A DNA stretch of 64,000 nucleotides from Acidobacteriota bacterium (GTDB lineage Bacteria > Acidobacteriota > Thermoanaerobaculia > Multivoradales > UBA5704), in NCBI GenBank assembly GCA_040005235.1, contig JBDTZG010000029.1, forward strand, positions 1-64,000, in the 5' to 3' direction. The notes beneath the pieces were generated by a model. The model was given only the letters and a program-made list of their open reading frames with translations. It did no database searches and had not been told where the DNA came from. Position 1 is the stretch's first letter. Each line of letters opens with the position of its first letter. Positions 56,475-64,000 of the stretch are shown in pieces. Made by a program: the position numbers and the translations under genes.

Positions 56475-58748
56475 ATGACGGCGTTTTTCGCGCATAGCGC
56501 TCCCTCGCGGTCGGATTGGGAACCGCTCTCCCGGCACCTTAGCGAGGTTGCGTGCCGGGCGGAGGCTTTCGCCGCTCCGTTCGGGGCGGGTGACGAGGCG
56601 CGCTTGGCCGGACTGCTGCACGACCTGGGCAAGTACAGCGATCGGTTCACCCGGCGGCTCGAGGGGACGGAGAGCGGGCTCGATCACTGGTCGATCGGCG
56701 CGCTCGCCTCGGCGGTGGCGGGCAAGGCCAATGCGCGGGCCGCGGCGCTCGCAATCCATGGTCATCACGTGGGACTTCAAAGCCCGGAGATCTTCCAGAC
56801 CCTTCAGGTGAAACCGGCCCCGGCGAACTGGACCGAGGCCGACCCGCGTAAGGCGCTCGACCTGCTCGCCGCCGATGGCCTCGCCCTGCCCGAGCTGGCC
56901 GGCTCGATCTACGATCGGAAGAGTCCCCCGGGCGGCGCGATGGTGGACGTCCGGATGCTGTTTTCCGCGCTCGTCGATGCTGATTTCCTCGCGACGGAGG
57001 AGCATTTCCAGCGTTTTGAGCCGTTCTCGTTCGCCCGTCCGCAGGGGCAGGTGCTCGATGCCGTTCGCGCGCTGTCTCTCGTCAAGGCCGAGATCGAAAA
57101 GAAGTCTGCCGCAAGCGACGCGGCGCCGACCGTTCGCGCGCTGCGCAACGATCTGCTCGACGCTTGCCTCGGCGAGGCGGTGGGGAAGCAGGGCGTGTTC
57201 ACGCTCACCGCCCCCACCGGCTCGGGCAAGACGCTCGCAATGCTCGCCTTTGCCCTGCGCCATGCGCAGGCGCACAACCTGCGCCGAATCGTCTTTGCCG
57301 TGCCGTATGTCTCGATCATCGAGCAAACCGCGAAGATCTATCGCGATCTCTTTGCCCCGACCTTCGGCGAGGACTTCGTCTTGGAGCATCACAGCCTGGC
57401 CGGGCTCGCTCCCGATCCGATGACGAACGAGGAGCCGAGCGAGGAAGAGCAACGTCGCCGCCTGCTCGCCCAGAATTGGGACGCGCCGATCGTGCTCACC
57501 ACCAACGTCCAGCTGCTCGAATCGCTGTTCGCCAACCGCCCGTCCGCCTGCCGCAAACTCCACGCCCTGGCCGATTCGGTGATCCTGTTCGACGAGGCGC
57601 AGACGATCCGTCCAGATCTCGCGGTGCCCACGCTCGCCGCGCTCTCTCGCCTCACCGAGCGCTATGGCGCCACGGTGGTTTTCGCCACGGCGACCCAGCC
57701 GGCGTTCGATCACCTGGACACCCAGGTGCGGCCGTTCGCCGCCCAGGGTTGGGCGCCGCGCGAAATCGTGGCCCCCGGTTTAGGGCTGTTCGCCCGGGTT
57801 CAGCGAACCCGACCGGTCTGGGATCTCGACCGGCCGAAGAGCTGGCCGGAGATCGCGGCCGAGATCGCCGCCCAAAACCAGGGGCTCGCGATCGTGAACT
57901 TGAAGCGCCACGCCCGCGACCTCGCGGCGGCGGTCAAAGTGCTCGCGCCCGAGGGGCTCTTCCACCTCTCGACGAATCTCTGCCCGGCGCACCGCGAAAG
58001 GGTGCTTGCCGACGTCCGCAAACGTCTCGTGGATGGCTTGCCCTGCCGGCTGATCGCGACCCAATGCGTCGAGGCGGGGGTGGACGTCGATTTTCCCACC
58101 GTCTGGCGCGCCTTCGGACCGCTCGAATCGATCGCCCAGGCGGCCGGGCGCTGCAATCGCAACGGCCGGCGGGAGGAGCCGGGGGAGGTTCGGATCTTCC
58201 TCCCTGAGGACGAGGGCTTCCCGCCCGGCGCCTACGCCCAAGCCGCCCGTGCCACCCGGACGCTGATCGAGAATCTCGGCACGGACGCGATCGACCTCGA
58301 CGATCCGGCGCTCTACCGTCGTTACTACCGCGATTTTTTCGACGGCAGCCGGATCGCGGAGGGCAACGCCGAACTGTTCGACGCGATCCGAGCGCACGAT
58401 TTCGCCGAGGTGGCCCGGCTCTATCGGCTGATCGAAAAAGATGCGATTGAAGTGCTGGTGCCGTACGACCTGGAGGCGTTCGCCGCCCTCCGTGACGAAG
58501 TGACCGCCGCCGGCCGGCCGTTCCCGCAGTGGATGAAGAAGGCCCGCCGGCACGTCGTGAGCCTCTACCGGCCGAAGCGAAACGACGAGGTCTGGTCGGT
58601 CCTGGCACCTCTCTCGGCCGCCCCGAGAAAGAAAGGGGAGCGGGACGAGCGGCTCGAACGGGACGAGTGGTTCGTGCTCACCGGAGCTGGGAAGTACGAC
58701 CCTCAACTCCTAGGATTTGTCGGCTGGTCCGGCTCCTGGATCACGTAG
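56475..58748 (+). CDS. cas3: CRISPR-associated HD nuclease/helicase Cas3 (type I-C)
   Basis: FAHS, LHDLGK, HH, SALVDAD; APTGSGKT, DEAQ, TAT, QAAGRCNR. Confidence 0.95.
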   Translation: MTAFFAHSAPSRSDWEPLSRHLSEVACRAEAFAAPFGAGDEARLAGLLHDLGKYSDRFTRRLEGTESGLDHWSIGALASAVAGKANARAAALAIHGHHVGLQSPEIFQTLQVKPAPANWTEADPRKALDLLAADGLALPELAGSIYDRKSPPGGAMVDVRMLFSALVDADFLATEEHFQRFEPFSFARPQGQVLDAVRALSLVKAEIEKKSAASDAAPTVRALRNDLLDACLGEAVGKQGVFTLTAPTGSGKTLAMLAFALRHAQAHNLRRIVFAVPYVSIIEQTAKIYRDLFAPTFGEDFVLEHHSLAGLAPDPMTNEEPSEEEQRRRLLAQNWDAPIVLTTNVQLLESLFANRPSACRKLHALADSVILFDEAQTIRPDLAVPTLAALSRLTERYGATVVFATATQPAFDHLDTQVRPFAAQGWAPREIVAPGLGLFARVQRTRPVWDLDRPKSWPEIAAEIAAQNQGLAIVNLKRHARDLAAAVKVLAPEGLFHLSTNLCPAHRERVLADVRKRLVDGLPCRLIATQCVEAGVDVDFPTVWRAFGPLESIAQAAGRCNRNGRREEPGEVRIFLPEDEGFPPGAYAQAARATRTLIENLGTDAIDLDDPALYRRYYRDFFDGSRIAEGNAELFDAIRAHDFAEVARLYRLIEKDAIEVLVPYDLEAFAALRDEVTAAGRPFPQWMKKARRHVVSLYRPKRNDEVWSVLAPLSAAPRKKGERDERLERDEWFVLTGAGKYDPQLLGFVGWSGSWIT

Positions 58749-58799
58749 GTCCTTGCTCACACGAAACCGCTCGGCGCCTTCAATTAACTTTATCGCTGG

Positions 58800-58868
58800 G
58801 CGAAGGGTCCCTTCCCCCGGGGAGGGGGTGGGTTGGGTCCGGGGGAAGGACAGGATGGGGGTTGCTCC
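58800..58868. repeat. Left arm of the inverted repeat flanking the DUF559 gene
   Basis: gcgaagggtcccttcccccgggg...ccgggggaaggacaggatggggg; internal hairpin. Confidence 0.8.
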
Positions 58869-58897
58869 CTTGGCCGCCGCCGAACCGATTTCGAGAC

Positions 58898-59236
58898 CTA
58901 CGCCAATCTGTTGCCCTCAAGTTTCGCGACGATCGCCGCGACTACGCCTTCCACGTTTCCCAATACTTCATGATTCCAGAACCGCAGAACGCGGTAACCC
59001 CGTTCGCGCAGCCAGGCATCCCGCGCTTCGTCTTTGCGCGACTCCATGTGTTGGCCGCCGTCGATCTCGATGACCAGCCGGCGGCGCAGGCAGGCGAAAT
59101 CGACGATGAAGTTTCCGATGGGAACCTGCCGTCGAAACTGTACGCCGAGAGCGAGGAGCCGGAGGTGCCGCCACAGGTGGCGCTCGGCGTCGGTCATGGA
59201 ATGCCGCAGGCGGCGGGCGACGGGCGTGAGGGCCAT
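58898..59236 (-). CDS. DUF559 (Vsr-like PD-(D/E)xK) endonuclease
   Basis: ARRLRHSMTDAERHLW, FRRQVPIGNFIVDF, IEIDGGQH, DEARD..GYRVLRFWN. Confidence 0.92.
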   Translation of the reverse strand: MALTPVARRLRHSMTDAERHLWRHLRLLALGVQFRRQVPIGNFIVDFACLRRRLVIEIDGGQHMESRKDEARDAWLRERGYRVLRFWNHEVLGNVEGVVAAIVAKLEGNRLA

Positions 59237-59268
59237 CGGGCTTAGTTTAGCGGGAGAGTTTGCGTGGA

Positions 59269-59339
59269 GGAGGCGACCCCCATCCTATCCTTCCCCCGGC
59301 TCCTACCCGACCCCCGCCCCGGGGGAAGGGACCCTTCGC
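59269..59339. repeat. Right arm of the inverted repeat flanking the DUF559 gene
   Basis: Reverse complement matches the left arm; outer 23 nt identical. Confidence 0.8.
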
Positions 59340-59387
59340 TCGGCTGCGTTGGAGCGTCGCGACGTTGGAGTGGTCCCTGAAAGCCAA

Positions 59388-59471
59388 GCTGGCGCCTTGC
59401 GGCGCCAGCCCCCTGACGAACGCTGATTCTAGGGCGAAAGATGTTTCAATCCACGCCACCAAGATGGCGAG
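59388..59471 (-). CRISPR. Mini-array/CRISPR-like RNA: one degenerate I-C repeat, 33-nt spacer, terminal hairpin
   Basis: Minus strand CTCGCCATCTTGGTGGCGTGGATTGAAAC (59471-59443), spacer ATCTTTCGCCCTAGAATCAGCGTTCGTCAGGGG (59442-59410), GCTGGCGCC-GCAA-GGCGCCAGC (59409-59388). Confidence 0.75.
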
Positions 59472-59473
59472 GG

Positions 59474-59518
59474 TTTATCTTACGCCCCTTGACAGGCAGC
59501 CAGCAATGGCCACAGACT
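59474..59518. promoter_or_regulatory. Overlapping divergent promoter-like elements containing the mini-array target
   Basis: Plus strand TTGACA (59489-59494) with CAGACT 18 nt later; minus strand TTGCTG (59506-59501) with TAAGAT (59482-59477) 18 nt later; TTT+ATCTTACGCCC at 59474-59487. Confidence 0.55.
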
Positions 59519-59812
59519 TCTGCAAGTTCGTTGAAGGTGTGAAGCCGGCCCGCGGAGAGTTCCAGCTCCCCACGGGCCAAAAGACCAACCAGAACCTGGC
59601 GGCTCCAGCTGAATCCCCAAAGTCAGTGTAGCCGCTGTGGTTCTTCTCTACAAGGAGAGCCTTACGGCCAAGCCATATTTCACCGTTCGGTTTCTACGCG
59701 AGCTGCTTCGGCCGCTTTGGCCGCGCAGCCGGTAGCCCCGGGGCTCCGGCACTTGATCCGCCGGAGCCCCCGTTCTCGCGTCTTCATTCGACATCTCGCA
59801 GGAGGAGGCCCC

Positions 59813-60553
59813 ATGGCCGCAAACCCACAAGTCCTCGAAGTCTGGGGCGATCTCGCCTGCTTCACCCGGCCGGAGTTGAAGGTCGAGCGCTTCAGCTATC
59901 CGTGCATCACCCCGTCCGCGGCGCGAGGGGTGTTCGACGCGATCTATGCCAAACCGGTCGAGTTCCGCTGGCAGGTCCGCCGGATCGAGCTGCTGGAAAA
60001 GCCGGCGTTCCTGGCGCTGCGGCGGAACGAGGTCAAGGAGAAGATCAACCTGACCGCGGTGGCTGCCTGGATGGAAGGCAAGCGCGAGCCGGAGCCGATC
60101 TGGGCGGATGGCGACCGCGAGCTGGTGGGCACCGACGAAAAGGGGCGCACCCAGCGGCAGACCATGGCTCTCCGCAACGTGCGCTACCGGCTGACCGCCG
60201 AGATTCGCCCCTGGCCCGGCAACGAGGGGAAGCAAACGGCCCTCGAGGCGCAGTTCCGGCGCCGGGCGGAAAAGGGGAAGTGCTTTGCCCAGCCCTATCT
60301 CGGATGCAGGGAGATGCCGGCATTCTTCGAGCTGGTGGAAGCGGAGGCGAGCGCCGCCACCAAGCCACCGGTCGCTTTTGATCTCGACATCGGCCTGATG
60401 CTCTACGACGTGTTCGACCTGTCGCGCCCAGGCGCCTCGGGCGACCGCCCCGCGGTGAGCCTGTTCCGGGCCGCGATCCTTGGCGGGGTGCTTGAAGTGC
60501 CCGAATGGGAGAGCGCTCAGGTGCTCCGTTCCGGGGGGCCGGCTGATGCTTGA
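59813..60553 (+). CDS. cas5: Type I-C Cas5 (Cas5c/Cas5d)
   Basis: VWGDLACFTRPELKVERFSY, TPSAARG, QPYLGCRE, LGLMLYD-like; AGGAGG SD. Confidence 0.95.
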   Translation: MAANPQVLEVWGDLACFTRPELKVERFSYPCITPSAARGVFDAIYAKPVEFRWQVRRIELLEKPAFLALRRNEVKEKINLTAVAAWMEGKREPEPIWADGDRELVGTDEKGRTQRQTMALRNVRYRLTAEIRPWPGNEGKQTALEAQFRRRAEKGKCFAQPYLGCREMPAFFELVEAEASAATKPPVAFDLDIGLMLYDVFDLSRPGASGDRPAVSLFRAAILGGVLEVPEWESAQVLRSGGPADA

Positions 60554-62378
60554 AGCTCTGGTCCGTTACGCCACGACGCGCAACCTCGTCGCAGAACCGG
60601 GCTTCAAGCCGAAGGAGGCGCGCTGGTCGATCCAGATCGGTTCCTCCGGCCGGTATCTCGGTCTCCAAGAGTTGGGGGAAGCCGGGCCAAAGAACAAGGG
60701 GGCGACGTTTGCGCAGTGCGCCGACTTGACGCTTGGCGAGATGAAGCGCGGCGGGGGCGGCACCCGCCATTTTCTGCTCGACCAGGTAGACGTGATCGCC
60801 CATCTGGCGGACGAGCCGGACGCGAAGCTCGATGCCAAGCATGCCTTCTTCATCAGTCTCTTGCGCCAGGCGGCCGAGGTGATGCCGGAGCTTGGCGCCT
60901 GCGCCGCCGCGCTTGAAGATCCGGAGCACCTCGCCCGTTTGCAAGACGACCTCCGCACGAGCAAGGCAAAGCCCACCGACAAGGCGACGTTCGCGGTCGC
61001 ACTTCCCGAAGGGGGGTTCGATTTTCCGGTTTCCTCCGACGCTTGGCACAACTGGTGGCGGGGCTTTCGCCGCACCCTCGGCCGCGACGGCGAGGGGGAA
61101 GCCTCGGGAAAAGACGGCGAAACCGCGCCCACCGTGCGCTGCCTCGCGAGCGGCGAGCGGGTGGCTCCCGTCGCGACCCAATTCATGATCCGCGGCCTGG
61201 CCGACGTGGGCGGTCTACCGACCGGCGATGCGCTCGCCTCGTTCAAGCAGGAGTCATTCTGCTCCTACGGTTTCGTCCAAGGAGAAAACGCCCCGGTCTC
61301 CGAAGAGATGGCCTCGGCGTTCCGCGCCGCGCTTGAACAGCTGCTGGTGAAAAGCGTGCGCCTGGGCGACTTGAAGATCGCCTATTGGTTTCGCGACGCG
61401 GTGGCGCCGGAGGAGGATCTCTTCGGAGTCTATGCGGAGGGCGAGGATCTTGCGCCGGGCGGCGAGCGGCTGGCGAGCAAGTTCCTGCGCGCGTTCGAGA
61501 CCGGCGAACGCGCCGGGCTGGCGAAGAACCGCTTCTACGCCCTTACCCTGTCGGGCGCGTCGGGACGGATCATGGTCCACGACTGGATCGAGGGTTCGTT
61601 CGAGGATCTCGCCCGGGCGCAGGACTGCTGGTTTTCGGCGCTTTCGATCGTCCGCCGCGATGGCCTGGGGCTTGCGCGAGATCCCAAGTTCCTGGCGGTC
61701 GGGGGCGCGCTTGTTCGGGTGCTCGGCGACCTGCCTCGACCGCTGCTCGTGGCGCTCTGGCGCAGCGCGTTGCGGCCCGGCCTGCCGATGCCGCAGCAGG
61801 CGCTCGCCATGGCCCTCGCCCGGTTTCGCATCGACGTGCTGGACCCCGACCATCCCTTCAACCACGCCCGGGCGGGCGTGCTCAAAGCCTGCCTGCTGCG
61901 CGCTCCCGCGGCGACGCGAATCGAAGAGGAAGACCTCATGCCCTATTTGAATGCAAAGCACCCGGCCCCCGCCTATCACTGCGGCCGGCTGGTCGCCCTG
62001 CTCGCCGAGCTGCAACGCCGGGCGCTCGGCGACGTTGGCGCCGGCGTAGTCCAACGCTTTTACGCCGCGGCCTGCACGACGCCGGCTCTCGTTCTCGGCC
62101 GGTTGCTGCGCACCTCCCAGTTCCACCTAGACAAGCTCGACGTGGGCCTGCGTCGGCTGCTCGAAGGGGAGATCGCCGAGGTGGTGGCGGAGATCTCTGA
62201 TTTTCCCCAGACCCTCGACCTGCCGGGGCAGGCGCTCTTCGCCCTCGGCTACTACCAGCAGATCGCCCACGATCGGGCCGCAGCAGCGCTCCGTCGCGCC
62301 GATCGCGCGGCTGCGGCGGACGGTCCGACCGCTCCTTCTTCCGACCGCGACGACACCGAAACGGAGATCGCCTCGTGA
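60546..62378 (+). CDS. cas8c: Type I-C large subunit Cas8c/Csd1
   Basis: MLEALVRYA start, [39 protein letters not shown]; lies between cas5 and cas7. Confidence 0.92.
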
Positions 62379-63334
62379 ACGAAACCACCGCCATTGCGAA
62401 CCGCTATGAGTTTCTCTTCCTGTTCGACTGCGAGAACGGCAACCCCAACGGCGACCCCGACTCGGGCAACGCGCCGCGGGTCGATCCGCAGGATCTTCAC
62501 GGGCTGGTCTCGGACGTCGCGGTCAAGCGCCGGATCCGCAACTACGTCCAGCTGGCCCGCGGCAATGAGATGCCGAACGCGATCTTCGTCGAGCACGCGA
62601 CCAACCTGAACCGGCCGATCGCCCGCGCCCACGAGGAGACCGGGGGCAGCGTACCGGACAAAGGCAAGGCGACCAAGTCTAAAGTCGAGGCGGCGAAGCG
62701 TTGGATCTGCGACAACTTCTATGACGTGCGTGCTTTCGGCGCGGTGATGTCGACGGGGGCCAACGCGGGTCAGGTGCGCGGACCGGTGCAGATCGCGTTT
62801 TCCCGCTCGGTCGATCCGGTCTTGGCTCTCGACGTCTCGATCACCCGGATGGCGGTCGCCGAGGACGTCAAAGGCAAGCGGACCAGCGCCGAGCTGGCGG
62901 AGTGGGAGGCCGAGCAGTCGGAAGACAAGCTGCGCACGATGGGTCGAAAGTCGCTGATTCCCTACGGTCTATTTCTGGGCAAGGGCTTTATCTCGGCGCA
63001 TCTCGCCGCCGGCAACGGCACGGGATTTTCCACCGCCGACCTCGACCTGCTCTGGGAAGCGCTGCTCGGCATGTACGACCACGACCGCTCGGCGAGCAAG
63101 GGTCTGATGGCGATGCGCAAGCTGTTCGTCTTCCGCCACGTCGGGACCGACACGGACGCCGAGCAGAGAAAACGCCAGGCAATGCTCGGCTGCGCCGGGG
63201 CGCACACCCTGTTCGACCTGATCGAAGTGAAGCGGAAGGTTGGGATCGACGCCGCGCGAAAGTTCGCAGACTACGACGTGATCGTCCACCGCGATCGGCT
63301 GCCGGCGGGGGTGGAGCTGCTCGAATTGCGCTGA
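62375..63334 (+). CDS. cas7: Type I-C Cas7/Csd2
   Basis: [53 protein letters not shown]. Confidence 0.96.
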
Positions 63335-63346
63335 GGACCCCTCCCC

Positions 63347-64000
63347 ATGTTCCCCGAAGACGACCTCCTGCCGATTTCGGCCCTTCAGCACTACGTGTTC
63401 TGCCCGCGGCAGTGCGCGTTGATCCACGTCGAGGGGATTTGGGCCGAGAACCCGCTCACGGTCTCCGGAACGCAGCTTCACGAGCGGTTGGACGACAGCG
63501 GGGTCGAGGCGCGGGGCGATCTTTTGACCGCCCGCGCCTTGCCTTTGCGTAGCCTCGAATTTGGCCTGGCCGGCCGGGCGGATGCGGTGGAGCTGCACCG
63601 GTTTCCGGCGGGAGCGGAGGGACCGGCGAGAACGGCAGGCGGGGTCGAGCTGCCCGGCCGCTCGGGCCGCTGGCGTCCGTTTCCGGTCGAGACGAAGCGG
63701 GGCAAGCCGAAATCTCATGACGCCGACCGGGTCCAGCTCTGCGCCCAGGCGCTTTGTCTCGAAGAGATGCTGGGCGTTCCGGTCCCCGCGGGGGCGCTGT
63801 TTTACGGCACGCCCCGGCGGCGCGAGGAGGTGGCGTTCGATCCGCCGCTGCGCGCCGCGACCCTCGCCGCCGCCCAGGGGGTGCGCGACCAGATCGCCTC
63901 CGGCATCACGCCGCGGGCGGTGCGCGAGCCGAAATGCGACCGCTGCTCGCTGATCGACCGCTGCCTGCCCGATCTCGCCGGCCGCTCGGCGCGCGCCTAT
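63347..64000 (+). CDS. cas4: Cas4 (runs off the window end)
   Basis: MFPEDDLLPISALQHYVFCPRQCALIH, GRADAVE, PVETKRG, QLCAQALCLEEM, KCDRCSLIDRC. Confidence 0.93.
   Translation, partial: MFPEDDLLPISALQHYVFCPRQCALIHVEGIWAENPLTVSGTQLHERLDDSGVEARGDLLTARALPLRSLEFGLAGRADAVELHRFPAGAEGPARTAGGVELPGRSGRWRPFPVETKRGKPKSHDADRVQLCAQALCLEEMLGVPVPAGALFYGTPRRREEVAFDPPLRAATLAAAQGVRDQIASGITPRAVREPKCDRCSLIDRCLPDLAGRSARAY

Follow-up and report, generated by a model that had tools for sequence, protein, structure and literature searches.

A candidate CreA/CreR-type guide RNA beside cas5 in a type I-C CRISPR-Cas locus of the Acidobacteriota

A type I-C CRISPR-Cas operon was analysed in a 64,000-nucleotide stretch of DNA from an Acidobacteriota bacterium (the window; positions 1 to 64,000 of contig C68 in a 6.2-Mb genome of 140 contigs). 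Between cas3 and cas5 of this operon, which occupies 56475-64000, a solitary repeat-like unit followed by a spacer-like guide was detected, and we interpret it as probably encoding a CRISPR RNA (crRNA)-like regulatory RNA of the CreA/CreR type. The first bases of the guide match a nearby site that is flanked by a protospacer-adjacent motif (PAM) and abuts a putative conserved promoter. Units with different guides, many of which match a neighbouring site of their own, were present in related and in more distant type I-C loci. The features of the locus are listed in Table 1.

The unit lies between the end of cas3 (58748) and the start of cas5 (59813), outside the CRISPR array. The host array is located beyond the window (C68:66759-68055, 20 repeats of GTCGCCCCCTGCGCGGGGGCGTGGATTGAAAC) and continues on contig C45 with 9 repeats; its repeat is 32 nt long and its spacers are about 33-37 nt. 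An earlier note on this DNA, made from the letters alone, had described a lone repeat-like unit with a type I-C handle and fold, a 33-nt spacer and a GCAA hairpin, and all are present on the minus strand. The comparison with the host repeat that it proposed, aligned by hand, gave 22 of 32 identical positions, with identity at all of the last 15 and at only 7 of the first 17. The unit ends in GCGTGGATTGAAAC, the sole reverse-strand copy of this 14-mer in the genome; the 30 forward copies are those of the host arrays. The stem at the processing site is retained, and the rest of the unit's hairpin is rebuilt through changed bases, with six pairs in the centroid fold. The decay of the repeat is selective, as expected if the handle and the hairpin alone matter, and we infer that Cas5c would accept the rebuilt hairpin.

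The hairpin that follows the guide is likely the 3' end or the terminator of the guide RNA and is positioned like the hairpin of a next repeat. The idea that this stretch is a second degenerate repeat was rejected: its hairpin is correctly placed, but the sequence is otherwise unlike the repeat. A bona fide (mini) CRISPR array has at least two direct repeats; here, one reverse-strand copy of the handle is followed by an unrelated hairpin. A search of 58700-59900 against Rfam returned two chance-level matches (E 0.67 and 0.96), far under the gathering scores, and a scan of viral contigs for the handle plus seed gave 0 matches to the guide. The sequence from 58833 to 59900 was identical in two DNA metagenome runs of one study, one of which is possibly the source of the assembly, and thus offered no variant for covariation.

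Guide bases 1-11 match 59477-59487, a site 35 nt from the spacer, with base 6 as the sole mismatch. Past base 11, 8 of 22 positions match when counted by hand, which is the chance level, and complementarity is therefore confined to the seed. The seed ATCTTNCGCCC (base 6 free) matches 26 sites in the genome. Three TTN-flanked seed sites were observed in the 6.2 Mb compared with 0.39 expected from composition, and the local target is one of these three. The flanking TTT ranks second after TTC for interference in a Legionella type I-C system (PMC5602111) and for binding in a Xanthomonas type I-C system (10.1101/2021.10.18.464778). The PAM of the window's own system was also sought from self-protospacers, and the 26 host spacers gave partial chance matches only.

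A single nucleotide separates the target seed site from the TTGACA of a putative rightward promoter. The pattern TTGACA-N17/18-[TC]AGnnT aligns in the window and five relatives (L024, L026, L031, L032, and L034; L-numbers label related type I-C loci), in which the -35 element is TTGACA, TTGCGC or TTGACG, the spacing is 17-18 nt and the -10 element is TAGCGT, TAGGGT or CAGGCT. We take the rightward element to be a conserved sigma-70-type promoter. On the other strand, the first 6 nt of the target read TAAGAT in complement, and this hexamer is the -10 element of a possible leftward promoter. This promoter is weak but correctly placed, and transcription from it would start at the 5' edge of the unit. 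The seed match, TTT, TTGACA and TAAGAT reported by the earlier note are each present at the coordinates in Table 1, and its geometry of one site over back-to-back promoters fits both the window and L057. Its assignment of the rightward promoter to cas5 is not supported in that form: the putative conserved TTGACA promoter does lie 1 nt from the site, but a conserved structured leader of about 130 nt and a short open reading frame (ORF; the mini-ORF) precede cas5. A 41-amino-acid ORF starting at ATG 59507 was rejected, as its start falls between the -35 and -10 elements of the conserved promoter and the ORF is unconserved.

The best 80 of 546 Cas5c-encoding loci (one genome per species) plus the window gave a comparison set of 81 loci, which was searched for GGATTGAAA[CT] up to 2.5 kb upstream of cas5. 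Sixteen units were found in 15 of the 81 loci, window included. Eleven are antisense to cas5 (window, L024, L026, L030, L031, L032, L034, L051, L056, L057, and L058), and after each of these comes a stretch of guide length (mostly about 23-24 nt) and then, in most, a hairpin with a T-run. Four units are in the sense direction just upstream of cas5 (L048, L055, L091, and L092), and one lies far upstream (L074). Records of Thermoanaerobaculia, Bryobacteraceae, Solibacteraceae, Longimicrobiales and Planctomycetales are represented among the loci.

For each unit, the 11 nt after the unit were taken as the seed, base 6 was ignored so that 10 bases were scored, and a TTN-flanked site was sought within 190 nt. 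A perfect (10/10) site was present for 7 of the 16 units compared with 2 of 15,998 shuffled seeds, and a site of at least 9/10 for 10 of the 16 compared with 36 of 15,998. The chance of a nearby perfect PAM-flanked site is about 1 in 8,000 per unit, and the seed-PAM match is not a chance match. The seeds of the units all differ (ATCTT.., AGTCT.., TGGCT.., TTGCT.., TCTGC.., ATATT.., ATAGT..), so guide and target have changed together; the spacer-target covariation that the earlier note had proposed to look for in homologous loci was thus found. The PAM was TTC in eight loci (L026, L030, L031, L032, L048, L051, L055, and L056); the window and L058 have TTT, and L057 has TTG. Mismatches were located at guide bases 6 and 12, a pattern that agrees with the structure of type I Cascade, where each sixth base of the crRNA is flipped out. 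By eye, L024 has a TTC-flanked site that matches 8/10 of the seed and bases 13-18. No convincing seed site was detected for L074, L091, and L092.

Six loci share what follows the rightward promoter: a GC-rich hairpin, a second long hairpin, a pyrimidine tract, a Shine-Dalgarno (SD) sequence AAGGAG and a short ORF. In the second hairpin, a GGCGGCT box pairs with a conserved CAGT(C/G)TAGCCGC box, and the pyrimidine tract can pair with the SD sequence. The leader has 30 predicted pairs, 6 of them with compensatory changes, and a terminator-like site was flagged on the plus strand at 59624-59637. The peptide is 23-27 amino acids long with the consensus ..RRxFT[IV]R[FY]LxE[IL]L[RW]xxWPR[SA][RH]. 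The motif F[TV][IV]R[FY]L was detected in 6 of the 81 upstream regions, and the antisense unit is present in all six. The invariant Arg, Leu, Leu, Pro, and Arg residues are each encoded by 3-4 synonymous codons and the Ser residue by AGC, TCG, TCT, and TCC; this synonymous variety points to selection on the peptide.

In the window, the position of the start codon is occupied by ACG (59664-59666), where the relatives have ATG, GTG or TTG, and the one canonical start in frame, GTG 59637, lies upstream of the SD sequence. The rare codons of the mini-ORF (CTA, AGA, and ATA) are single and in mid-ORF, with no tandem pair after the start, unlike CreT. A stretch of 78 nt, in which the scan called no terminator-like site, separates the stop codon (59733-59735) from cas5; in L032 and L034, about 380-430 nt of other sequence separate the mini-ORF from cas5. 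Of 401 genomes sampled from the class (13 of the family; G012 and G033 left out), the window's genome alone contained a degenerate leader-plus-ORF pattern. The leader-box pattern matched nine stretches of metagenome contigs; these were treated as chance matches because none of the nine had the mini-ORF motif or a repeat-like unit.

Four loci of the same genus (L010-L013) have cas3-cas5 gaps of 130-975 nt, contain cas5 and have neither unit nor mini-ORF; cas5 is therefore independent of this promoter there. About 70 nt directly 5' of cas5 in the window (59741-59812; CCGCCGGAGCCCCC.TTCTCGCGTCT..) are about 80% conserved in these same-genus loci without the guide module. This stretch is probably cas5's own promoter or another control site. 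BLAST of the window's gap against 60 relatives matched just the cas5-proximal 120 nt.

The related loci show direct, CreR-like layouts and cargo-controlling, CreA-like ones, and the window belongs by homology to the second kind. In L051, L048, and L055, TTC-flanked targets lie 48-90 nt upstream of cas5 with no cargo between. The protospacer of L051 contains the -35 element TTGACG of a promoter 90 nt before cas5, and the sense-strand units of L048 and L055 target a site about 50 nt before cas5. The L056 target is a TTC-flanked 9/10 match and stands 59 nt before cas5. Cargo genes are found elsewhere. L030 has a window-type unit and promoter, followed by a DUF3800 gene (about 260 amino acids) instead of the mini-ORF, and in L057 and L058 (Planctomycetales) a gene for a NYN-domain (PIN-like RNase) protein lies between target and cas5. 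The target in L057 is located between divergent near-consensus promoters, TTGACA..TATAAT toward the NYN gene and TTGACT-N17-TATCAT toward the unit, which is a full 32-nt repeat-like sequence. The guides of L057 and L058 match 15/16 between the two divergent promoters, and the NYN gene and guide are a candidate protein-toxin/RNA-antitoxin pair.

Two side observations concern units in these relatives. In L056, another Acidobacteriota locus (2155-2307; same record as L016), genes for tRNA-Ala(TGC) and tRNA-Gln(TTG) lie within the cas3-cas5 gap, just upstream of the antisense unit on the same strand, and a co-transcript with the tRNAs may be the source of the guide. In L091 and L092 (Armatimonadota-type), the sense repeat end (TGTGGATTGAAAT) stands directly before the cas5 ribosome-binding site, 36-43 nt before cas5; this solitary repeat may have a different use.

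The nearest relatives of the operon's Cas5 are from Thermoanaerobaculia (Acidobacteriota) metagenome-assembled genomes. The listed cas5 ORF starts at TTG 59717; its Pfam match begins only at residue 39 and the alignment of Cas5 relatives starts at the Met at 59813. The cas3-cas5 gap is 1,064 nt long because the true cas5 start is ATG 59813. The gap also holds a DUF559 gene on the minus strand (58898-59236, Pfam E 2e-38), flanked by inverted copies of a repeat of about 65 nt (58798-58866 and 59276-59339, 90.6% alike). This repeat occurs at about 14 genomic places, and in two metagenome runs its contig depth is 6-12 times that of its surroundings. The gene and its flanking repeats look like a small mobile or repetitive extragenic palindrome-like cassette inserted beside the guide RNA gene.

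Table 1. Coordinates of the guide module and neighbouring genes in the window.
Feature	Position	Strand	Remarks
Degenerate repeat (psi-R)	59443-59474	-	final 15 nt = host type I-C repeat; hairpin rebuilt as CGCCAT/GTGGCG
Spacer-like guide (psi-S), 33 nt	59410-59442	-	seed = first 11 nt, ATCTTTCGCCC
GC-rich 9-10-bp hairpin with GCAA loop (GCTGGCGCC-GCAA-GGCGCCAGC), then TTGGCTTTC	59388-59409	-	from fold
PAM TTT	59474-59476	+	5' side of target, non-target strand
Target seed site ATCTTACGCCC	59477-59487	+	pairs with guide bases 1-5 and 7-11; full 33-nt footprint would extend to 59509
Putative rightward promoter: TTGACA 59489-59494, 18-nt spacer, CAGACT 59513-59518	59489-59518	+	from conservation
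Possible leftward guide promoter: TTGCTG 59501-59506, 18-nt spacer, TAAGAT 59477-59482	59477-59506	-	weak match
Conserved leader	59525-59657	+	from alignment and fold
Leader hairpin 1	~59547-59578	+	GC-rich
Leader hairpin 2, includes CAGTGTAGCCGC box	~59592-59643	+	from fold
SD sequence AAGGAG	59652-59657	+	follows pyrimidine tract
Conserved mini-ORF (..YFTVRFLRELLRPLWPRSR*)	59664-59735	+	~25 amino acids, arginine-rich
cas3	56475-58748	+	HD, DEAD, and Cas3 C-terminal domains
cas5c (Cas5d family)	59813-60553	+	ATG preceded by AGGAGG
cas8c (Csd1)	60480-62378	+	Cascade gene
cas7	62375-63334	+	Cascade gene
cas4	from 63347	+	3' of cas7

The arrangement suggests the following scheme. The guide RNA would be transcribed on the minus strand from the weak promoter overlapping 59477-59506. 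Cas5c (Cas5d) leaves an 11-nt 5' handle on crRNAs, and here it would cut at the base of the rebuilt hairpin to give an 11-nt repeat handle. The 33-nt guide and 3' hairpin would then be loaded into Cascade (Cas5c, Cas8c, and Cas7), which would recognize the TTT while guide bases 1-5 and 7-11 pair with the seed site. Because pairing ends after the seed, Cascade is predicted to bind without licensing Cas3. Bound Cascade would form a roadblock 1 nt from the rightward -35 element and atop the guide's own -10 element. One Cascade on the leftward -10 and -35 elements and against the rightward -35 element would thereby create a putative double feedback loop, of which the geometry is supportive. The rightward transcript would comprise the structured leader and the mini-ORF of about 25 amino acids, and it probably continues into cas5-cas8c-cas7 because no terminator was called after the ORF. 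The output of the rightward promoter would report the level of free Cascade. For the mini-ORF, we tentatively prefer a cargo or toxin that Cascade would repress and whose copy in this genome is in decay; it may instead encode a leader peptide.

Several observations weigh against a regulatory guide RNA of this kind in the window. A consensus promoter scan of 59250-59900 (threshold of at least 4/6 in each hexamer) called neither promoter, and the evidence for both is conservation or weak hexamers (CAGACT and TTGCTG). The terminator scan did not call the hairpin at 59388-59409, the tail of which (TTGGCTTTC) is a weak T-run, and the PAM is TTT and not the canonical TTC of most relatives. In the window's mini-ORF, the SD sequence is followed by none of the start codons ATG, GTG and TTG. 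Its peptide matched no Pfam family, and none of 21 candidate relatives among predicted proteins of 12-83 amino acids reached E ≤ 0.01, a weak negative since ORFs this short are rarely called. A search for sequencing runs with this sequence returned no RNA run, and the organism is apparently represented by metagenome-assembled genomes only.

The comparison with other loci also has points on this side. The guide of the window is 33 nt long versus about 23-24 nt in the relatives, its terminal hairpin is unrelated to theirs, and 16 nt separate the unit from TTGACA versus 90-150 nt in the relatives. The distance from the start of the seed site to the -35 element is 12 nt in the window, compared with 32 nt (L030), 42 nt (L026), 44 nt (L032) and 59 nt (L031) elsewhere. 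Because guide, hairpin and spacing differ, functional homology with the relatives is not guaranteed. For 3 of the 16 units, no site of at least 8/10 was found anywhere in the searched region, and the site of L034 is broken by one extra base (a 1-nt indel, judged by eye). The loci are kin, and the shuffle statistics therefore overstate the number of independent events. The absence of the module from four same-genus loci means that it is an accessory that comes and goes and is dispensable for the system.

Within the interpretation of the element as a regulatory guide, two accounts of what it controls compete, a toxin-like cargo as in CreTA and CrePA or a leader/attenuator of cas5-cas8c-cas7 as in CreR, and we give them roughly equal weight; both are possible in different lineages. 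In the purest form of the latter, the unit would be an autoregulator of cas5-cas8c-cas7(-cas4) and of itself, and the leader and mini-ORF would be a functionless long 5' untranslated region with an upstream ORF or an attenuator. This form is possible, although we do not favor it. The 78 nt from ORF stop to cas5 ATG with no terminator called, the cargo-free targets 48-90 nt upstream of cas5 in L051, L048, and L055, the noncanonical start of the window's mini-ORF and the attenuator-like combination of a terminator-like hairpin and a pyrimidine tract before the SD sequence all fit it, but the peptide has been kept through synonymous changes in six loci, about 380-430 nt lie between mini-ORF and cas5 in L032 and L034, DUF3800 or NYN cargo replaces the mini-ORF elsewhere, and same-genus loci have cas5 without this promoter. 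An addiction module of the CreTA/CrePA type is an equally tentative alternative. The leader/mini-ORF transcript or the peptide would be toxic, the guide would be the antitoxin, loss of Cascade would lead to arrest, and control of cas5 would be secondary. The strict linkage of the unit with promoter, leader and mini-ORF (6/6 loci), the patchy spread (absence from four same-genus loci and presence in 1 of 401 class genomes by the degenerate pattern), the strong SD sequence, start codon and mid-ORF rare CTA, AGA, and ATA codons of the relatives' ORF, the putative RNase (NYN) in the same place in L057 and L058 and the anatomy, which is that of the one-repeat CreA plus terminator of H. hispanica (PMC8501985), are all consistent with this account. 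Set against these are a peptide that matches no known toxin family, the ACG at the window's start position, by which a former toxin may have been disabled here, and rare codons that are single versus the tandem pairs of CreT (PMC8501985).

Two further explanations would remove the regulatory role or move it elsewhere. The unit could be an inert fossil, what decay has left of an old or inverted array end, with a coincidental 10-of-11 match, as its single repeat, weak T-run, uncalled promoter and difference from the relatives' version might suggest. This is highly improbable: decay has been selective, with handle and stem kept, the match has a per-unit chance of about 1 in 8,000 and yet recurs with different sequences in 7-10 of 16 units, and the element is identical in the two metagenome runs (with the shared study and possible source noted above). 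It is very unlikely that the main target lies elsewhere and that the RNA regulates a non-cas gene in trans, like small CRISPR-Cas-associated RNA (scaRNA) or Haloferax-type crRNA-like RNAs. Two more TTN-flanked (TTG) seed sites do exist, at C42:37370 and C118:32131, but the C118 site is inside long ORFs, the C42 site is at an ORF edge, and the covariation in relatives concerns the local site. The C42 and C118 sites are possible weak off-targets.

A more specific version of the regulatory interpretation joins the two accounts of its target. The arginine-rich peptide (..RRxFTIRFLRE[IL]LRxxWPRSR) and its leader would be a new kind of toxin, repressed by Cascade, that would render type I-C Cascade addictive in Thermoanaerobaculia, and the window would be transitional, with a former addiction module becoming a plain CreR-type autoregulator of cas5-cas8c-cas7. 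We regard this version as speculative and rather doubtful. If the transitional state were real, the start of the toxin would have decayed to ACG and a new spacer-target pair would have been acquired directly against the -35 element.

The kind of element described here is already known. CreR, CreTA and CrePA have been established experimentally for types I-B, I-E, I-F, and V-A (10.1101/2023.03.10.532045; PMC8501985; PMC12737573). Like CreR of types I-B, I-E, and V-A, the unit consists of a degenerate repeat and guide beside cas genes with partial, PAM-proximal complementarity to a PAM-flanked site; for CreR this site is at a cas promoter and CreR autorepresses without cleavage (10.1101/2023.03.10.532045), and in the window it is beside a putative promoter. 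Unlike CreR as described in that source, the window's unit belongs to type I-C, is antisense to cas and is accompanied by a leader and mini-ORF before the effector genes. The resemblance to CreA of the Haloarcula hispanica type I-B system extends to the single psi-R, psi-S and terminator, PAM-adjacent complementarity at bases 1-5 and 7-11, through which haloarchaeal CreA was shown to pair, a target at the promoter, putative in the window, of a small divergent gene within the cas locus and a patchy distribution; one-repeat-plus-terminator forms exist among haloarchaeal CreA RNAs (PMC8501985). Here Cas5c would do the processing in place of Cas6. The CreT toxin is an RNA and has a strong SD sequence, an efficient start and tandem rare codons (PMC8501985), whereas its counterpart in the window is an amino-acid-conserved peptide with no tandem rare codons and no canonical start. 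In CrePA (type I-F), a crRNA-like RNA directs the effector to repress a protein cargo in the locus (PMC12737573; 10.1101/2024.01.05.574328). Closest to CrePA are L057, L058, and L030 with their NYN and DUF3800 cargo, and perhaps the window with its mini-ORF; CrePA differs in its type and its phage-derived toxin (PMC12737573).

Regulatory mini-arrays are likewise standalone repeats near cas3, with spacers partly complementary to cas8 or cargo promoters and mismatches at positions 6 and 12 (Shmakov et al., 10.1101/2023.03.03.530964). They mostly have two repeats versus one repeat plus a hairpin in the window, and the main text of that preprint covers types I-B, I-D, I-E, I-F1, and V-A, with the term I-C absent from it. 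Cracr and Racr are also solitary repeat-derived RNAs that load into Cas effectors (10.1101/2024.10.29.618823; PMC10651486), but they serve phage or plasmid counter-defence, whereas the window's unit is inside a host cas operon. For type I-C itself, the sources cited here give bioinformatic mentions only: creA-like elements have been found manually in loci (Liu et al., 10.1101/2023.03.10.532045), and the Cracr preprint describes nine two-spacer viral arrays aimed at I-C loci, for example in Neisseria sicca, from which it follows that host I-C CreR/CreA elements exist (10.1101/2024.10.29.618823). A literature search of main texts returned no experimental type I-C crRNA-like regulator and no description of the mini-ORF.

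The window thus adds a member in a little-studied subtype, possibly with a new cargo; as far as the window alone is concerned, this amounts chiefly to a well-supported annotation and to no new principle. The covariation signal in type I-C is clear, as differing spacers each match their own, mostly TTC-flanked neighbour in several phyla. Three type I-C layouts emerge, with direct control of the cas5 promoter, protein cargo (NYN, DUF3800) or the conserved mini-ORF, and they provide concrete testable examples together with a candidate new small cargo or toxin. Compact type I-C systems are used in genome editing and CRISPR interference, and rules for short-seed repression and one-repeat guides are therefore of practical interest. 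If the peptide is indeed a Cascade-repressed toxin, the module would be the type I-C counterpart of CreTA and CrePA.

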